Below, piece by piece: positions 2,253-16,371 of a DNA stretch of 64,000 nt (positions are counted from its first letter, which is position 1; the number at the start of each line of letters is the position of its first letter). The notes under the pieces are model-generated. The model did no database searches. It saw nothing but the letters and a program-made list of their open reading frames with translations, and was not told the origin of the DNA. The stretch lies in IMG/VR virus record IMGVR_UViG_3300029309_000019, positions 1-64,000 of that record, one strand, 5' to 3'. This stretch comes from an uncultured virus (IMG/VR IMGVR_UViG_3300029309_000019) (taxonomy: Duplodnaviria > Heunggongvirae > Uroviricota > Caudoviricetes). A program made the position numbers and the translations under genes.

Positions 2253-2363
2253 CTAGTTGTTTATCAAGTTGAAAATTATCATTGTTATCATTACGAGAAA
2301 CCCTAGGTACATCACTGCGCACTCTAGGATTTCTATTCTTGCTCTCTTCTTACTCTTCTTCAT
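2253..2363 (-). CDS. Single-TM micropeptide (36 aa)
   Basis: Hand translation MKKSKKRARIEILECAVMYLGFLVMITMIIFNLINN*. Basic N-terminus plus hydrophobic helix; ATGA overlap with the upstream ORF. Confidence 0.65.
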   Translation of the reverse strand: MKKSKKRARIEILECAVMYLGFLVMITMIIFNLINN

Positions 2364-2596
2364 AATACATATTCTTTAAAGAATCTATCTACTATTACCA
2401 TAGCATTCATTCTAGCGTAATACTCTTGTTGCGTTAGAGTACCCGTTCTTTGTGGGCTAGGTAGTGCTATCTCCTTCTCAAGTAGTTGCTTTGTACTACC
2501 CTCTAGGTGTTCGTACTTTATGGTATACTCATCATATCCCATTAGTATTCTTCTAGTAATTGTCTCAATCAATTCATTCTTTTTATTCCAATCCAT
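2360..2596 (-). CDS. Hypothetical early protein (78 aa)
   Basis: ORF track; fills the operon without gaps. Confidence 0.75.
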   Translation of the reverse strand: MDWNKKNELIETITRRILMGYDEYTIKYEHLEGSTKQLLEKEIALPSPQRTGTLTQQEYYARMNAMVIVDRFFKEYVL

Positions 2597-2600
2597 AATT

Positions 2601-2684
2601 CTATTTATCTTGGTTAATATATCTTAATAAAAATACTACGAAGTAGTATATGATTAGGTAAACTGCTAGGTCTATCGGTGTCAT
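2601..2684 (-). CDS. Single-TM micropeptide (27 aa)
   Basis: Hand translation MTPIDLAVYLIIYYFVVFLLRYINQDK*; exactly fills the gap between two ORFs. Confidence 0.6.
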   Translation of the reverse strand: MTPIDLAVYLIIYYFVVFLLRYINQDK

Positions 2685-2687
2685 ATC

Positions 2688-3041
2688 TTAGAAATTTATC
2701 CATTCGGCACCTACCTTTACTACCTTTACTTCCTCTTCAGTATACATCACTTCTTCTTGGTGAAAGTTTTTCTTGATGTAGTTGCATAAGCTAGATAGTT
2801 TATCGGGCTTTACACCATCTGTGATTAGTGTTAGTCGGTAGCTATCTTCTTCTACCATTACCCAAGCGTTTGGATGGATTTTATTACCCGTATCAGGATG
2901 TTTCCACCCACCTTGTATCTTTTGTAGTGAGTAGCCACCGAAGGTATCGCATACTAATTCTAGTACATTCTCTAGATGTACTTGTTCTGCATTGTCTGTG
3001 TGTTTGCCACTTATGGCAAAATAAATTTCATATCTTATCAT
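2688..3041 (-). CDS. DUF3574-like / phage SAM-lyase-like ferredoxin-fold protein
   Basis: Pattern F.GGYS.....GGW.......E.S..L.......L...IK..F.QE.V resembles DUF3574 and phage SAM lyases. Confidence 0.5.
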   Translation of the reverse strand: MIRYEIYFAISGKHTDNAEQVHLENVLELVCDTFGGYSLQKIQGGWKHPDTGNKIHPNAWVMVEEDSYRLTLITDGVKPDKLSSLCNYIKKNFHQEEVMYTEEEVKVVKVGAEWINF

Positions 3042-3052
3042 ATCTAGTTTTT

Positions 3053-3355
3053 TTAGTGTACAACAATATTTACTTCGTACCAGTTATCGCTATCGTATTG
3101 TATCTTGAATGTTATGTCAAACCAATGGTGTTCTTTATCCCATTCACAAGAGTACTCCTCTATGTAGGAAAATTTACTTATGGCATCTATCTTTTGCATT
3201 AGTTCTGAGAATGTAAGAGTCTTCCTTCTACTTGACCATTGAAGTCGTATGTCTTTATTAATGGAGGTATGGAAGAAGTCATCTAGCGTTAGGCGTAGTT
3301 CATCTTGTAGCATTCCATCGAGGTGTACTAATTTGTTCAGTATTGTCGGTTTCAT
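3053..3355 (-). CDS. Hypothetical early protein (100 aa)
   Basis: ORF track; preceded by CTAGATATG. Confidence 0.75.
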   Translation of the reverse strand: MKPTILNKLVHLDGMLQDELRLTLDDFFHTSINKDIRLQWSSRRKTLTFSELMQKIDAISKFSYIEEYSCEWDKEHHWFDITFKIQYDSDNWYEVNIVVH

Positions 3356-3357
3356 AT

Positions 3358-3447
3358 CTAGTATTTTTTCTTGTTAATTACTCGGTAGGCATTAGCTTTT
3401 GCTCTAGCTACCTCTCTCTTTACTTTAATAGTTCTAAATGTACTCAT
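3358..3447 (-). CDS. Basic micropeptide (29 aa)
   Basis: Hand translation MSTFRTIKVKREVARAKANAYRVINKKKY*; A-rich leader; stop is 2 nt from the next ATG. Confidence 0.55.
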   Translation of the reverse strand: MSTFRTIKVKREVARAKANAYRVINKKKY

Positions 3448-3466
3448 GATATAATTTTTTTAAGTT

Positions 3467-3598
3467 TTATTTAACTAATGTTATTTTATTGTCCTCAAAT
3501 TCTCTATATAGTATATCTGCAACACGATAAACCATATCTAAATCGCTACCTACTATATCTATTGCTAAATTATAGCAATACTTTTCTAATTCATTCAT
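3467..3598 (-). CDS. Small protein (43 aa) directly downstream of the hammerhead cleavage site
   Basis: Hand translation MNELEKYCYNLAIDIVGSDLDMVYRVADILYREFEDNKITLVK*; Bacteroidota-style A-rich leader (AAAACTAATAAAACT ATG). Confidence 0.6.
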   Translation of the reverse strand: MNELEKYCYNLAIDIVGSDLDMVYRVADILYREFEDNKITLVK

Positions 3599-3613
3599 AG
3601 TTTTATTAGTTTT

Positions 3614-3710
3614 AAGTTACAGACTAGGGGAATGTTACCTGTGTAGCTCTTATGTCTACCATATTCGTTATCCCCTAGTTTCGACCTATTAGGTCTCATC
3701 AGTATAACTC
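3614..3710 (-). ncRNA. Hammerhead ribozyme (type I topology)
   Basis: Minus strand reads GAGUUAUA-CUGAUGA-GACCU aau AGGUC-GAAA-CUAGGGGA...UCCCCUAG-UC^-UGUAACUU. Invariant core is complete, stem I is 8 bp (two G.U), stem II 5 bp, stem III 8 bp plus A-U. GUC cleavage triplet, predicted cut between 3622 and 3621. It is intergenic and on the sense strand. Confidence 0.92.
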
Positions 3711-3922
3711 TAGCAAGACACTTCTGTCTTCTCTACGGCAAACCTAGAGATGCTATAAGCATAAGCTAGGGAGTACTTGTGTTCCTCGATAGCTTCTTCT
3801 AGTTCCATAGCTTCTTGAAACTCTGGGTTTACTCGGTAGTTGTTGATTACTCTCTTGTTAACACCTAGTTGAATAGCTTCGTTTACTAGGTCTAAGTCGA
3901 ATGATAATACTGCATTTGTCAT
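3710..3922 (-). CDS. First early protein (70 aa), between the tRNA-like element and the hammerhead
   Basis: ORF track; its TAG stop abuts hammerhead stem I. Confidence 0.75.
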   Translation of the reverse strand: MTNAVLSFDLDLVNEAIQLGVNKRVINNYRVNPEFQEAMELEEAIEEHKYSLAYAYSISRFAVEKTEVSC

Positions 3923-3943
3923 GATTGAAAAATTTAAAGTTAG

Positions 3944-4041
3944 TGGTGGACAAGGGTATCGCTCCCTTCGGATATGCTAGTACGACATCTCTAGTAGAGA
4001 CCTAGCAACGGACAAGTTATCCGTAGTCATTCTAGTCCACC
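3944..4041 (-). ncRNA. tRNA-like element (acceptor plus T-arm mimic, non-canonical body)
   Basis: 7-bp acceptor-like stem GGUGGAC/GUCCACC with discriminator A. A 5-bp arm AAGGG-AGCGAUA-CCCUU with a 7-nt T-loop-like loop sits directly next to it. Internal hairpins ACGGAUA/UGUCCGU and UGCUAG/CUAGCA. No encoded CCA and no normal anticodon arm. Confidence 0.6.
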
Positions 4042-4515
4042 TAGAATACCTAGTCGATTTTTGGAGTGCTACCTTTGGCTAACCTAGTAGGAGCGTAGTT
4101 TGTCTGACCTAGCAGAACACCTAGAGGATACCCTCTAGTTACTTGCTGACAAGTCGCTCGTTCCTAGTGATACGGCCATTGGCATTTCACACAATGTATC
4201 GTTAATCGAGAACGCATTCGTATTTCTATCTAGTGTAGGTGGTCAAACCTAGTGTTATCTAGTAATACTCAGACGCTAATCTACATGCTCTCTAGTCGTT
4301 ATCTAGCCGATTGTCTCTCAACCTCGAGTGGTAACCTAGTAGCTAGGAGGTGGCACTCTTGATATGGTTCTAGCATATCTCTAGAGGTGGCTAGGGGTAT
4401 CCCTAGGGGTAATCAAGGTCTTCTAGATAGGACAGGAGGTACACTTGATTAGCGTGTTTTCAGTATGTCAGGTGCTAGTGTTAGTAGCTTGTCGGTTGCT
4501 CGTTTGCTGTCGACA
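4042..4515 (-). ncRNA. Candidate large structured non-coding RNA / early leader
   Basis: No ORF of 60 aa or more; GC higher than flanks. Nested stems: ACGCUAAUC(4455-4447)/GAUUAGCGU(4281-4273), CUUGAU/AUCAAG, GAAUGC/GUAUUC, UCGAUU/AAUCGA, GAGCG/CGCUC, UUGUC/GACAA, CUAGAGG/CCUCUAG. G.U pairs favour the minus strand. Confidence 0.55.
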
Positions 4516-4518
4516 CCT

Positions 4519-4550
4519 CAAACACACAAAAACAAATCGTAATTACCAAA
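4519..4550 (-). promoter_or_regulatory. Possible early promoter (variant Bacteroidota -33/-7)
   Basis: TTTG-N20-TGTGTTTG. Spacing matches the other promoters, but TG replaces the consensus TA. Confidence 0.4.
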
Positions 4551-4932
4551 TTACTAGAGAAGAAAGGGGGGTACACAAAACGATTTGAGGGGGTGGCCTA
4601 GGTTAAACTTTGTAATATACTAGATGGGGTGTAGGGGTTAGCACACAACAAAACACTTGCGCAAACCATCAGAAACCTATCGAGAGCCACAGATAGTTCA
4701 CTAGAACGCACTAGATGGGGGCTAGAGAGGGGGGAGGGGGTGGCCACGGAGCGCACGAGTTACCACTAGAGAAAGATAACTAGCGCTGACTAGATAAGAC
4801 CCCACCCCGTTGGGACATTCGGTTTGGGTATTGTAATGTAGGTGTACACACGCATGCATAAACCCCCACCCCAGAACTGTGTGCGCCAATACAGCAAGAC
4901 ACCACATACAGTAGTTAGGTATATATAGGCAT

Positions 4933-4972
4933 AAAAAAAGGCTAACTCACTGTGTTATAGTCAGTTAACCTT
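4933..4972 (-). terminator. Intrinsic terminator of the basic-microprotein operon
   Basis: Minus strand AAGGTTAACT...AGTTAGCCTT followed by a T-run, downstream of the last leftward ORF (5051). Confidence 0.65.
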
Positions 4973-4987
4973 ATTATTTAGTATTAT

Positions 4988-5053
4988 TAGTGTAATGTGG
5001 TTACACTTGTAGTGTAATGAGAGTACGCTTGTAGTGTAATGTGGTTACACTTA
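4988..5053. repeat. 3 x 22-bp tandem repeat of imperfect palindromes
   Basis: TAGTGTAATGTGGTTACACTTG / TAGTGTAATGAGAGTACGCTTG / TAGTGTAATGTGGTTACACTTA; core AGTGTAA-N5-TTACACT. Confidence 0.9.
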
Positions 5054-5299
5054 TGACTTCTTAGAACGTACTTTAGCTTTCTTTGTGTTAGCAACGAATT
5101 GTTTACCCTTGCTACCGCCTGCTTTTTTCTTTCTGGCAGTCTTAGCACGCTCTGCTTTTGACAAGCTCCTTGCTTTTGATAATGGCAAACATCGGTCAGG
5201 ATTCTTTTTGTTCTTGCTTGTACCGCACTCACCTTTGATTGAGCCGTCTGTACCTATTCTAACCCACCTTTGTTTGAGCCATTTCTTTAATTCACCCAT
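5051..5299 (-). CDS. Basic small protein (82 aa), DUF5872-like region family
   Basis: LKKW.KQ.W...G...CG......RCLP..KA..LS..ER..T..KK motif, common in aquatic phages. Confidence 0.8.
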   Translation of the reverse strand: MGELKKWLKQRWVRIGTDGSIKGECGTSKNKKNPDRCLPLSKARSLSKAERAKTARKKKAGGSKGKQFVANTKKAKVRSKKS

Positions 5300-5427
5300 T
5301 ATTTTCTACCCTTTTTCTTTTTACCACCGTTTCTCTTTAGTGCTCTAAAGTCTGCAGCTGTTATCTTATTAAATGGTGGTGCTGCTTTTGCGATGCGCAT
5401 CTGCGCTGGTGTCATTTTTTTTGCCAT
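5299..5427 (-). CDS. Basic microprotein (42 aa)
   Basis: Hand translation MAKKMTPAQMRIAKAAPPFNKITAADFRALKRNGGKKKKGRK*; TAATG coupling to the next gene. Confidence 0.75.
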   Translation of the reverse strand: MAKKMTPAQMRIAKAAPPFNKITAADFRALKRNGGKKKKGRK

Positions 5428-5429
5428 AA

Positions 5430-5501
5430 TTATTTTCTACCTTTCATACCCTTACTAATTCTAGTAGAGGTTTTTTTCTTTTTAAGTTTCTTTTTCATCA
5501 T
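5430..5501 (-). CDS. Lys-rich micropeptide (23 aa)
   Basis: MMKKKLKKKKTSTRISKGMKGRK*; ATGA overlap with the upstream ORF. Confidence 0.55.
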   Translation of the reverse strand: MMKKKLKKKKTSTRISKGMKGRK

Positions 5502-5623
5502 TTCTTTTTCTTTTTAGGTGTCATTGATTTTAACATTTTGTCAATACGCACTGCTTGTGATTTATGCATTGCAGATGCTTTTCTTAACTCTCCTGCAATT
5601 TTTCTTAGTTTAGATTTGTCCAT
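5498..5623 (-). CDS. Basic microprotein (41 aa)
   Basis: MDKSKLRKIAGELRKASAMHKSQAVRIDKMLKSMTPKKKKK*; TAATG coupling. Confidence 0.75.
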   Translation of the reverse strand: MDKSKLRKIAGELRKASAMHKSQAVRIDKMLKSMTPKKKKK

Positions 5624-5781
5624 TACTTTTTCTTTCTTTTAGAGCCCTTTGCATAGTTTGGGTCTTTGCAATACTTAGAAGCTGCCAAATTTGCATATGC
5701 GCTTGGATACTTATCAAACGTACGCTTAGCCCATGCTATACCAGCAGGACAGATTTTATTTGATTTCTTTTTCTTTGCCAT
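5623..5781 (-). CDS. Basic microprotein (52 aa) with KYPSAYAN motif
   Basis: MAKKKKSNKICPAGIAWAKRTFDKYPSAYANLAASKYCKDPNYAKGSKRKKK*; TAATG coupling on both sides. Confidence 0.8.
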   Translation of the reverse strand: MAKKKKSNKICPAGIAWAKRTFDKYPSAYANLAASKYCKDPNYAKGSKRKKK

Positions 5782-5969
5782 TATTTTTTCTTTTTAGCTT
5801 TTGGCTTAGCCTTAGCTTTCGCTGTCTTAGATAATTCATTAAAGTGATACAGTCTTACACTAGTTGCTGTATGTGATTTGTTAGTATGTAAAGTACCATT
5901 AGGCATTTTATGCATATTACCTTTCCACTCTTTACCATTTCTAGTGTAATGTTTTACTCCTTTTCCCAT
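5781..5969 (-). CDS. Basic small protein (62 aa)
   Basis: HY...G....G..HKMPNG.LH....H...S..L.H..ELS motif. Confidence 0.8.
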   Translation of the reverse strand: MGKGVKHYTRNGKEWKGNMHKMPNGTLHTNKSHTATSVRLYHFNELSKTAKAKAKPKAKKKK

Positions 5970-5984
5970 GATTATTTTTTTTTA

Positions 5985-6284
5985 TTAATATTTACCTTTA
6001 CGTCCTTTCGGAGATGATTTCTTAGAACCTCCAGAACCAGCCCATAAATTTTTACAAGCCCAATATCTAGCAGATAATTTATTCTTGGCAGAACCACATC
6101 GGTGTCTTGCTTTGAAAGATTTACGTGCAGCAGCGGAATAATTATGCCCGTATCCAGTAGCTCCGTAGTGAATAATTTTTTCTTGGCCATTAGCACAAGC
6201 CTTAACAACTCTCTTCTTCTTAGGATTAGGAGAGCGTCTTGGCTTGTTGCAGGCCATTTTACTTTTGTCTAACTTCTTAGCCAC
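5985..6284 (-). CDS. Basic small protein (~99 aa; probable GTG start)
   Basis: C-terminal part of the 121-aa track ORF: KK..VKAC..G.EKIIH.G..GY....ARKSF.ARH.C......SARYWAC..LW. The exact start is uncertain. Confidence 0.75.
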   Translation of the reverse strand: MAKKLDKSKMACNKPRRSPNPKKKRVVKACANGQEKIIHYGATGYGHNYSAAARKSFKARHRCGSAKNKLSARYWACKNLWAGSGGSKKSSPKGRKGKY

Positions 6285-6474
6285 AACCACAGTCCCCTCC
6301 GCCAGGGTTAGTTTTTTTATTAAAAACTTGTTGGTTGCCATGCATAACATTAATGTTGCGCATCATGTTAGTAGGTCTCGGTCTGTTACCTTGACCCATT
6401 TCACCTGGGCTAACCTTTACCATTCTTGGAGACGAAACAGTTCTTTTAGGAAGATTTTTATTTACAAATCCCAT
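6277..6474 (-). CDS. Hypothetical small protein (65 aa)
   Basis: ORF track; ends GGGDCGCG; fits the operon. Confidence 0.6.
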   Translation of the reverse strand: MGFVNKNLPKRTVSSPRMVKVSPGEMGQGNRPRPTNMMRNINVMHGNQQVFNKKTNPGGGDCGCG

Positions 6475-6476
6475 AA

Positions 6477-6542
6477 CTATTTCTTTTTCTTTTTCTTCTT
6501 CATAGGCTTTGCTTTCTTACCCATTTTCTTTTTACCGTACAT
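6477..6542 (-). CDS. Lys-rich micropeptide (MYGKKKMGKKAKPM followed by a poly-Lys tail)
   Basis: C-terminal end of track ORF 6477-6674; the plausible ATG lies just after the stop of 6547-6792. Confidence 0.55.
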   Translation of the reverse strand: MYGKKKMGKKAKPMKKKKKKK

Positions 6543-6546
6543 AATT

Positions 6547-6792
6547 TTATTTTTTAGTAGTTCTACGTTTGGAACCTTTCTTTCTAGACTTTTCTCGTCT
6601 ACTACGATTCTTGCTAGCTTTTTCAAAACCAACAATCTTTCCGCCTCTATGAGAGGCATCAAGTCCATCGCCATTACCGTACGTTCCTTTCTTACGGTTA
6701 TATTTATTTAGAGCAGCTCTTCTTTTCTTTGCTCTATCTGAGGCTTGGAATTTTTTATATTCCTTTTTATAATCTCTTTTTTTTTGTGGCAT
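6547..6792 (-). CDS. Small HNH-like endonuclease-family protein (81 aa)
   Basis: RDYKKEY...R..RN/LN...GDG.D.SH..G......S.NR pattern of small phage HNH-type proteins. Confidence 0.6.
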   Translation of the reverse strand: MPQKKRDYKKEYKKFQASDRAKKRRAALNKYNRKKGTYGNGDGLDASHRGGKIVGFEKASKNRSRREKSRKKGSKRRTTKK

Positions 6793-14087: not shown

Positions 14088-16371
14088 TAAAAAACAAAGC
14101 AATTACGGATACCCTAGTCCTTTTGCTTCAGATGAAACAAAATTAAATAAGCAATATGGATTGACTTATTTTTCAAGAATGTATAGAGAGTGGGCTGGAA
14201 AAGATTCTGTTATTCTTCATCAAAAAAGAAGAAGACTTACAGAGCAAAGAGCTTATGCTGAAGGACTTCAATCTACTACTAAGTATAAAGATTTAATGAA
14301 CAAAAGCGGAGATGATTCTTATCTTAATTTAGATTGGAGCATAGTACCTATAGTGCCTAAGTTTGTAGATATTATAGTAGGAAGCATGACTAATCAAGAT
14401 TATAAAGTTTCTTGTACAGCAATAGACCCTATATCTACTCAAAAAAGAAAAGATGATAAGTTAGACCTTCTAGTTCAAATGATGACTAAAGATTTTACAG
14501 AAGAGCTTTCTGATATAACTGGTTTACCATTAGGTCCTCAAGAAGATGTGCCAGAAACTAAAGAAGAATTAGAGCTTTTTATGGAGCTTAATTATAAGCA
14601 GGCTACTGAAATAGCTATGGAACAAGGTATAGATTTAGCTTTTACATTAAATGATTTTAAGGAAATATCTAGAAGAATTATTAGGGATTTAGTTGTTGTT
14701 GGTACTGCCGCATGTAAAACATTTTTAAATCATGATGGTATAAATATAAGATATGTAGACCCAGAGTATTTAGTAACATCGTATTCAAGTCGACCAGATT
14801 ATAAAGATATTGTTCATGCTGGAGAAATAATAAAAGTCTCATTGCTTGATTTAAAAAGAATGGCTGGAGATGAATTCACAGAAGATGAATATAGACAGAT
14901 AGCAGAAGCTTATTTAGGAAGGAATAACAATCCTTCTAAACTTAGTAAGGCTTCATACTATGTTGATGGAATGGAAATGTATGACTATGATAAATATCTT
15001 ATAGATATTATGGACGCAGAATTTAAGTCTATATCAGATATTCATTTCGAGAAAAAACAAACACAGTATGGTACAAGCACTGTAAATAAAAAGAAAAAAG
15101 GGTATAAGCCACCTAAAAATTCTAAATTTAAAAGACAGCAAATAAAGCCTGAGTTTGAAGTTTGGTATACTGGTAAATATATTATAGGAACAGATTATAT
15201 ATTTGACTATGGTGTAAAACAAAATATGTTAAGACCAAAAAGTAATTTAACACGTTCTATGTGTGCATATAATGTTTATACACCACACATGTATAACATG
15301 AATAACAAATCTTTAGTTGAAAGAATGATGCCTTTTGCAGACCAAATTCAGCTTATACATCTAAAAATGCAACAACTTATAGCCAAAACAAGACCAAAAG
15401 GTATGGCTATAGAGTTAGGCTCTATAGAAGGTGTTACAAAAGGTGATGGCAATACTTTTACTCCTTTAGAAATACAGGATGTTTATGAACAAACTGGTAA
15501 CCTTTATTTTAGAACGTTAGATGATGGTGGTACTGCTACAGGTAGCCCTAGACCAGTTCAAGAACTTTCAGGTGGTATTGGTGGCGCTTTGCAAGAGTTA
15601 ATACTTTCATACAGGTATAATGTTGAAAGACTTAGAGAAGTCACTGGTATTAATGAAGTAAGAGAGGGTTCTGCTCCAAACAAAGAATCTTTAGTAGGTG
15701 TTCAAAAAATGGCTTTACTAGCTTCTAATAATGCAACTAGATTTATAAACGATGCGTATGTTAATATAATGGAAAGAACTGCGTTTTCATCATCTTTAGC
15801 TTTACAAGATTTAGTTCAATACAAAGGCCCTTACACTGGTTATATTGATGCTTTAGGTGAAACAACTTTAAAAGTAGTAGATATAGGTAAAGATATTACA
15901 TTGCATGATTTTGGCATAAAAGTACAAGCTTTACCAGATGAAGAAGAAAAAGCTATGTTAGAGCAAAATATTCAACAGTCTTTAGCTCAAAAAGAATTAA
16001 GACTTGAAGATGCTATAATGGTTAGAAATATAAATAATATAAAACTTGCCAATCAGTTATTAATTTTAAGGAGAAAAAAGTACGCTCAAGAGCAATCAGA
16101 AAAAGCTCAAAGAGAAATGCAAATGAACTCTCAGGTTCAACAAGAATCTGCTATGGCTGCAGCTCAATCACAAGCTCAAATAGAGCAAATGAAACAACAA
16201 GCTGAAGCACAAAAATTAGAAATAGAGTATAGGTTGAAAGAAGAGTTTGCTCAAGCTGAGCACCAAAGAAAAATAGAAGAAATAAAATTGCAAGGTGATA
16301 TTAAAACTGAACATATAGAAACTGCATCAAGTGATATAGATTCAGATTTAACAAGAATTAGGAAAAGATAA
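14080..16371 (+). CDS. Portal protein
   Basis: Directly after TerL; LNLDW..VPI.PKFVDI and REVTGINE.R.G motifs; Gln-rich coiled-coil C-terminus. Confidence 0.88.
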   Translation: MSNKKQSNYGYPSPFASDETKLNKQYGLTYFSRMYREWAGKDSVILHQKRRRLTEQRAYAEGLQSTTKYKDLMNKSGDDSYLNLDWSIVPIVPKFVDIIVGSMTNQDYKVSCTAIDPISTQKRKDDKLDLLVQMMTKDFTEELSDITGLPLGPQEDVPETKEELELFMELNYKQATEIAMEQGIDLAFTLNDFKEISRRIIRDLVVVGTAACKTFLNHDGINIRYVDPEYLVTSYSSRPDYKDIVHAGEIIKVSLLDLKRMAGDEFTEDEYRQIAEAYLGRNNNPSKLSKASYYVDGMEMYDYDKYLIDIMDAEFKSISDIHFEKKQTQYGTSTVNKKKKGYKPPKNSKFKRQQIKPEFEVWYTGKYIIGTDYIFDYGVKQNMLRPKSNLTRSMCAYNVYTPHMYNMNNKSLVERMMPFADQIQLIHLKMQQLIAKTRPKGMAIELGSIEGVTKGDGNTFTPLEIQDVYEQTGNLYFRTLDDGGTATGSPRPVQELSGGIGGALQELILSYRYNVERLREVTGINEVREGSAPNKESLVGVQKMALLASNNATRFINDAYVNIMERTAFSSSLALQDLVQYKGPYTGYIDALGETTLKVVDIGKDITLHDFGIKVQALPDEEEKAMLEQNIQQSLAQKELRLEDAIMVRNINNIKLANQLLILRRKKYAQEQSEKAQREMQMNSQVQQESAMAAAQSQAQIEQMKQQAEAQKLEIEYRLKEEFAQAEHQRKIEEIKLQGDIKTEHIETASSDIDSDLTRIRKR

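Follow-up and report, generated by a model that had tools for sequence, protein, structure and literature searches.

A predicted type I hammerhead ribozyme between small genes of a marine phage, with a changing downstream gene and relatives in other phage genomes

We observed that a marine phage genome carries an intact type I hammerhead ribozyme on its minus strand, at positions 3710-3614 of the window (the whole stretch of 64,000 nucleotides that was analysed). The first-pass annotation had reported an intact intergenic hammerhead on this coding strand, and our reading of the core and the three stems, the folding and a covariance model all agreed with it. Judged by its sequence, the element is very likely to be an active ribozyme. 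With moderate confidence, we propose that its job would be the constitutive punctuation of a polycistronic phage mRNA, as proposed by Perreault 2011.

Results

Genome and gene neighbourhood

The genome is a single virus record of 64,677 bases whose ends overlap by 19 bases. The plus strand carries the terminase, portal and virion genes, and the capsid protein just reaches the cut-off of Pfam Crass_capsid. The terminase matched 120 phage records (all below 60% identity), among them 68 Flavobacterium phages and 15 Cellulophaga phages, and the phage DNA occurs in marine metagenomes. Since the best terminase matches are to phages of Flavobacteriia and the DNA is marine, we infer that the host is a member of the Flavobacteriia. 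No tRNA or tmRNA was found in the window. The two largest ORFs had no match to solved structures, and a virion RNA polymerase is thus unsupported.

Small genes form a run on the minus strand that crosses the ends of the record towards exonuclease and primase/helicase genes; the ribozyme sits after the first ORF of this run, which encodes 70 aa. The label of an 'early' operon, given by the first-pass annotation, would follow from this gene layout. The 70-aa ORF had no Pfam match; a weak PHROG match to the terminase small subunit (E 8e-4) was not trusted.

Several other features were seen in the window. The non-coding stretch 3930-4520, upstream of the 70-aa ORF, was matched by five RNA-library contigs from three studies, all within 4053-4512, while none of the five covered the neighbouring ORFs; 4053-4512 is possibly an abundant non-coding RNA. 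The 3930-4520 stretch is CTAG-rich, had no Rfam match at the gathering threshold, folded on the minus strand with a z of -1.79, and in pattern scans matched only the contig of locus L131 (a relative described below). It occurs as two sequence types (window/L214 and L131/L213), and both partners differ in 13 of the 46 consensus pairs, a count from a comparison of only these two types. On the minus strand, a hairpin followed by a U run at 4936-4974 is kept in L131 with changed stem letters, and probably terminates the upstream minus-strand gene block. Very lysine-rich small ORFs (5051-6792, minus strand) are colinear in L131, several matching PHROGs of unknown function; directly after the last of them, at 4988-5052, are three tandem 22-nt copies, each a small hairpin, which are also found in L131. 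The small-gene run also contains two short perfect hairpins (807-827 and 1571-1585) that share AGAGGT/ACCTCT arms.

Architecture and fold of the ribozyme

The features of the locus are as follows.

3922-3710, minus strand: upstream ORF, 70 aa, conserved (80-96% in four distinct relatives)
3710-3614, minus strand: type I hammerhead from sequence reading; core perfect, stems of 8, 5 and 9 bp
3710-3703, minus strand: stem I 5' strand, 8 bp with 3621-3614 (sequence and fold)
3702-3696, minus strand: core C3-A9 (CUGAUGA), invariant in 4/4 aligned orthologs
3695-3683, minus strand: stem II hairpin, 3695-3691 with 3687-3683
3682-3679, minus strand: core G12-A13-A14-A15.1 (GAAA), from sequence reading and ortholog alignment
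3679-3671 with 3631-3623, minus strand: stem III, 9 bp, pair probabilities 0.84-1.0
3670-3632, minus strand: stem III insert, 39 nt, with a weak GUAG (3659-3656)/CUAC (3646-3643) hairpin; not conserved
3624-3622, minus strand: GUC triplet G16.2-U16.1-C17, from the sequence (GUC also in 75 of the 83 family members described below)
3622/3621, minus strand: predicted cleavage, C17/U1.1, from the hammerhead consensus
3621-3614, minus strand: stem I 3' strand, the first 8 nt of the downstream product, with U1.7 at 3615
3621-3599, minus strand: A-rich leader, 23 nt, from the predicted cut to the ATG at 3598
3598-3467, minus strand: first downstream ORF, 43 aa, of no family; the gene in this slot differs among relatives

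All the nucleotides that a hammerhead core requires were present (C3-U4-G5-A6-N7-G8-A9, G12-A13-A14, A15.1-U16.1 and H17), and in both the MFE and the centroid fold the three helices met at the core as exactly the three-way junction. The topology is that of type I, stem I being open-ended while loops close stems II and III; stem II can be drawn with 5 bp and an AAU loop or with 4 bp and a 5-nt loop. Stem I begins at 3710, which is also the final base of the UAG stop that closes the 70-aa ORF. The cut was placed at 3622/3621 from the hammerhead consensus (cleavage after H17). This predicted site and the A-rich leader, both already given in the first-pass annotation, held up.

The MFE on the minus strand was -28.4 kcal/mol (z -3.19), and 0 of 200 shuffles were as good. 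As the plus strand folded nearly as well (-27.1 kcal/mol, z -3.41), the strand is fixed by the core letters and not by folding. The element has two G.U pairs, both in stem I; such pairs had been proposed to decide the strand, which they do not. Stem I is weak on its own (-5.1 kcal/mol). Its probability was 0.6-1.0 in contexts of 103-301 nt (0.4 for the outermost pair in the longest of these), and dropped to 0.09 in a 531-nt equilibrium fold. The small GUAG/CUAC hairpin was part of the MFE, as originally described, but taken alone (-3.2 kcal/mol, 25 of 200 shuffles as good) it was at chance level, and it was absent from three relatives. The weight earlier placed on the stem III insert thus found no support, that part being hypervariable among relatives.

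The fold analysis revealed no conserved pseudoknot in the element. The best pairing of loop II with a flank had 5 bp (-2.9 kcal/mol), took a stem base and was not conserved. U1.7 and a loop-terminal A were present in 4/4 orthologs, with U1.7 able to pair with A2.7, but only 25 of 83 family members had U1.7; the two nucleotides resemble a Hoogsteen contact described in a passage of PMC11875169. Overall, the pairing and family checks identified in the element none of the stem I/stem II tertiary contacts that fast cleavage needs.

The leader at 3621-3599 had no Shine-Dalgarno motif. It carries adenines at -3, -6, -12 and -13, the positions that the relevant part of PMC6847099 reports as translation determinants for Flavobacterium johnsoniae, and in the fold the downstream product was without a strong 5' hairpin. 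A 9-nt direct repeat lies on either side of the 43-aa gene, its copies starting at 3618, inside the 3' strand of stem I, and at 3466.

Detection and comparison with Rfam families

The type I descriptor gave one match in 64 kb on both strands. In a Markov-3 simulation of 150 windows (300 strands), stems of at least 8/5/8 were found on 0 strands, and stems of at least 5/4/5 on 1. Trained on 45 other phage hammerheads, with this element left out, a covariance model scored the element at 48 bits (E 1e-11), with the next match at 11.8 bits; it found no second hammerhead in the window or the full genome. A chance origin of the element is excluded.

An Infernal search with the Rfam hammerhead models, which had been suggested as a check, did not recover the element at the gathering threshold (0 matches in the window). 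Below threshold, Hammerhead_3 scored 23.0 bits (gathering 48.5) and RAGATH-1-hammerhead (RF03152) 23.9 bits (gathering 56.3), while RF00163 was not among the Rfam matches up to E 10 in 3300-5000; the element thus stayed under the gathering score for RF00163, RF00008 and RF03152 alike. The same was seen in the phage family described below, where relatives with short stems scored 27-30 bits against the RF00163 gathering score of 34, and none of 16 family loci run against Rfam reached a gathering score. As the family falls below the Rfam thresholds, it is missed by standard annotation.

In its structure, the element is like RF00163 Hammerhead_1 (clan CL00010), with stem I open, stems II and III closed and all core nucleotides present; its stem I is without the internal loop of Schistosoma-type hammerheads. 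It shares type I topology and similar core-proximal letters with RAGATH-1-hammerhead; however, stem II of that model is a single base pair and a 5' hairpin is present, whereas stem II of the window has 4-5 bp. When the element was compared with cultured phages by BLAST, only short chance matches came back. The core plus stem II had one exact match, at locus L001, with quite different neighbouring ORFs. There, a type I hammerhead with the window's stem II and a 94-nt stem III arm (about 2300-3000, minus strand) lies inside a long non-coding stretch.

Conservation of the ribozyme at a changing gene slot

Relatives of the locus were fetched through the upstream 70-aa protein, so that the sample was not biased towards the RNA. 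Six loci were fetched, of which L212 (identical to the window here) and L216 (42% match, too distant) were not counted; four distinct relatives were left, L131, L213, L214 and L215. L133, L218 and L219 are the same contig as L131 and not independent. The core and all three stems were kept in L131, L213 and L214 (3/4 distinct relatives), so that the core substitutions which might have spoken against the ribozyme occurred in none of the three distinct relatives that carry it. The fourth and more distant one, L215 (upstream protein 80% identical), has no ribozyme. Two distant relatives had no match, and among 80 loci of terminase relatives a hammerhead was found only in L133, most of these loci being uninformative as they stop short upstream.

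The stem I wobble U2.2.G1.2 of the window was a C-G pair in L131, L213 and L214, and stem II pairing was kept in the orthologs, with one A-U changed to G.U in L131. The stem III arm was 57, 71, 29 and 41 nt long across the window and the three relatives that keep the element, with pairwise identities of 35-56%; among the same four, the core half was 87-97% and the upstream 202 nt 90-96% identical. Stem III nevertheless paired for 8-9 bp or more in each of the four orthologs. It would appear that only the pairing of stem III matters, and not its sequence.

The first downstream gene was different in all four (window, L131, L213 and L214). The first gene of L214 is the second gene of the window, and the first gene of L131 is a homolog of the window's third (36% identity). 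Gene content also varied further downstream, and in L215, so this turnover is not confined to the slot. The leader was 21-25 nt long across the orthologs, even though the first gene differs in each. The last base of the upstream stop codon was the first base of stem I in L131, L213 and L214 too.

A family of phage hammerheads

We assembled a family from pattern scans of viral contigs and the type I descriptor. Of the 132 sequences scanned, 91 held a total of 83 distinct type I hammerheads, the window's among them; the other 41 had no descriptor match and were excluded from family counts. Because the pattern fixes the core and the filter demands pairing, the 99% pairing in the family is partly circular. 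The alignment and model took 45 of the 83 members (those with a short stem III), and 12 of 15 pairs changed on both sides, which again is partly circular since members were chosen for pairing. The stem III arm had a median of 24 nt and reached at least 57 nt in 5 of 83.

The first ATG lay 15-45 nt after the predicted cut in 62/83 members (39/53 after clustering), against 16% at random positions. An upstream stop ended within -15 to +5 of C3 in 62/83 (58/83 by a second method), against 5% at random, its offset being spread from -12 to +3 and not fixed. These positional nulls were drawn mostly from coding DNA, and they show tight intergenic packing, not function. Among the 64 leaders of up to 45 nt, 30 had a Shine-Dalgarno-like motif and 34 had none; in a set of 32 leaders without the motif, 26 had A at -3, 25 had it at -12 and 27 at -13.

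At least 15 loci held 2-5 hammerheads between successive genes. Arrays of this size were seen in L051, L033, L052, L062, L041, L015 and L070; in the last four, a near-identical unit of ribozyme plus leader precedes different genes, as expected if genes were shuffled by recombination at the repeats. L047 has three type I copies and, at 1932-1985 on the minus strand, a type III hammerhead (47.8 bits) among them.

Hammerheads in cultured Elemoviruses

Flavobacterium phage elemoE_6-9C (NC_055854, our locus L217) carries one type I hammerhead at 16300-16365 on the minus strand (family model, 54 bits). It lies in a minus-strand small-gene run, 28 nt (an A-rich leader) before gp66. The copy is unannotated, and a hypothetical ORF on the opposite (plus) strand, gp65, which is probably spurious, overlies it. 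A 21-codon ORF, read by eye, ends so that the last base of its stop is the first base of stem I. The Elemovirus copy thus fits the same family model as the window's and is likewise a single copy with an A-rich leader in a minus-strand small-gene run; in contrast, its stem III is short and its neighbouring genes are different, and orthology is unsupported.

The stretch was found in 68 Elemovirus records at 95% identity or more, and four were aligned. Two fully compensated stem II pairs differ between elemoA/elemoC and elemoE, and the only core base that varied was the free N7; both observations support selection on the fold. ElemoF combines half of each stem II version, which gives two broken pairs (if the record is right), and so would apparently be a cultured phage with a damaged copy.

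Discussion

That hammerheads lie between phage genes, as the first-pass annotation stated, is already in print together with the idea of mRNA processing. In the parts of Perreault 2011 (PMC3088659) that bear on phages, hammerheads flank variable phage genes and mRNA processing is proposed; clustered prophage hammerheads are shown to cleave in vitro and in E. coli, a halovirus transcript has its 5' end within 3 nt of a hammerhead cut, and in the halovirus a start codon follows HHphage at a distance of 13 nt. Like these elements, ours is intergenic, on the coding strand, with a canonical core, and beside small non-conserved genes of inconstant identity. Unlike them, it is a single copy and not a cluster flanking genes, it showed no pseudoknot in the fold analysis, it has an unusually long stem III, and it belongs to a marine Flavobacteriia-type phage with a leader that has no Shine-Dalgarno motif. 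Passages in two reviews (PMC6155905, PMC6765202) repeat the processing proposal and call the role of bacterial and phage hammerheads open. Our literature search, which left most subscription journals outside, returned nothing specific on these hammerheads in phages of Flavobacterium or of the sea, although such sequences may be listed in the alignment supplement of PMC3088659, and no paper on an overlap of hammerhead and stop codon.

In the mechanism that we propose, a minus-strand transcript would start upstream of the 70-aa ORF and run through the small-gene cluster. Folding and comparison show the three-way junction just after the stop codon, and with its intact core the RNA would cut itself after GUC, at 3622/3621, without a host nuclease. 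Hammerhead cleavage leaves a 2',3'-cyclic phosphate upstream and a 5'-OH downstream; the upstream piece would end in the stem III hairpin with this phosphate, and the downstream piece would begin with the 5'-OH. Stem I, at -5.1 kcal/mol, would then dissociate to free a fixed and unstructured 23-nt leader with the adenines used by Flavobacterium ribosomes. The downstream genes would gain a 5' end of their own, and their translation and half-life would be uncoupled from the upstream RNA. The processing of T7 early mRNA by host RNase III is an analogy for this last step.

We favour punctuation because the core is perfect, the fold is dominant, and pairing is kept while stem III is replaced; because leader length is constant despite a changing first gene, and arrays stand between successive genes; and because of the stem II compensation in Elemoviruses and the cleavage of clustered prophage hammerheads described in Perreault 2011. 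The want of an identified tertiary contact, the stem I probability of 0.09 in the 531-nt fold and the patchy distribution (L215, the two distant relatives, elemoF) count against it. The RNA contigs, from three of six listed libraries, reveal neither strand nor ends; none lies over the ribozyme, which is uninformative, as a DNA run was also without cover at 3624-3777.

The position of the stop codon raises the question of whether translation gates the cut. A ribosome terminating at the upstream UAG would cover the core together with the 5' half of stem I, and cleavage would then occur mainly while the upstream ORF is untranslated. The stop's last base is the first base of stem I in the window, three orthologs and elemoE, and the stop falls close to C3 in most of the family (62/83 within the -15 to +5 interval, against the 5% at random). 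However, compact genomes would give such overlap for any intergenic element, the offset is spread and not fixed, and a ribosome sits on a stop only briefly; we regard this switch as unlikely.

Self-cleavage of glmS destabilises its RNA, and by analogy the cut could lower expression, with the downstream genes detached from a stable 5' region and exposed to decay. The downstream product, being without a strong 5' hairpin, would be compatible with such a fate, and differing stabilities are mentioned in a passage of PMC6765202. Yet the leader has all four positive Flavobacterium translation determinants, and arrays with a ribozyme before each successive gene fit processing better than destruction, which makes a lowering of expression quite doubtful.

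The sequence TAnnTTTG at 3746-3739 is a candidate Bacteroidota -7 element, and the ribozyme could then trim the 5' end of a short transcript from an internal host-type promoter. The motif occurs in the window, L131, L213 and L214, and is absent from L215, which is without the ribozyme. There is, however, no -33 element at the expected spacing; the motif lies inside a conserved ORF, occurs 112 times in the window (90.6 by chance) and stands ahead of no more than 9 of 82 family members, with several near-duplicates among the nine, compared with a 4% background. We consider a trimming role very improbable.

We also think it very improbable that the ribozyme was selected to form the 3' end of the upstream RNA (non-coding stretch 4512-3930 plus the 70-aa ORF), with the leader incidental. 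All five RNA-library contigs, from the three studies, do fall upstream of the ribozyme, and stem III still pairs as its sequence is exchanged; but neither the strand nor the ends of an RNA can be read from these contigs, which may be DNA and stop short of the ribozyme, and a leader of conserved length speaks for a downstream role. That the element is a slow or inactive relic, or a fold that arose by chance, is scarcely credible: the lack of an identified tertiary contact, the patchy distribution and the broken stem II of elemoF might speak for it, but chance is excluded by the simulations and the covariance model and the pairing survives wholesale replacement of stem III in three orthologs.

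Beyond punctuation, we raise a tentative idea, to be held with little confidence, that the ribozyme would be a natural genetic insulator marking a plug-in gene slot, possibly gated by the stop codon, with stem III perhaps tuning the fate of the upstream RNA. A fixed distance from cut to start would make the expression of the next gene independent of the upstream context, and so gene swapping would become possible. The idea stems from the four relatives with four different first genes and from one indel junction at the end of stem I.

Phage hammerheads of this arrangement have been known since 2011, and such ribozymes are common in phage contigs. What this element adds is a clean comparative series, in which core and leader length are fixed while stem III is freely replaced and the downstream gene changes. 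The Elemovirus copies, among which elemoF would be a natural stem II-mismatch variant, are in cultured phages with a known environmental host, and make a role in vivo testable.
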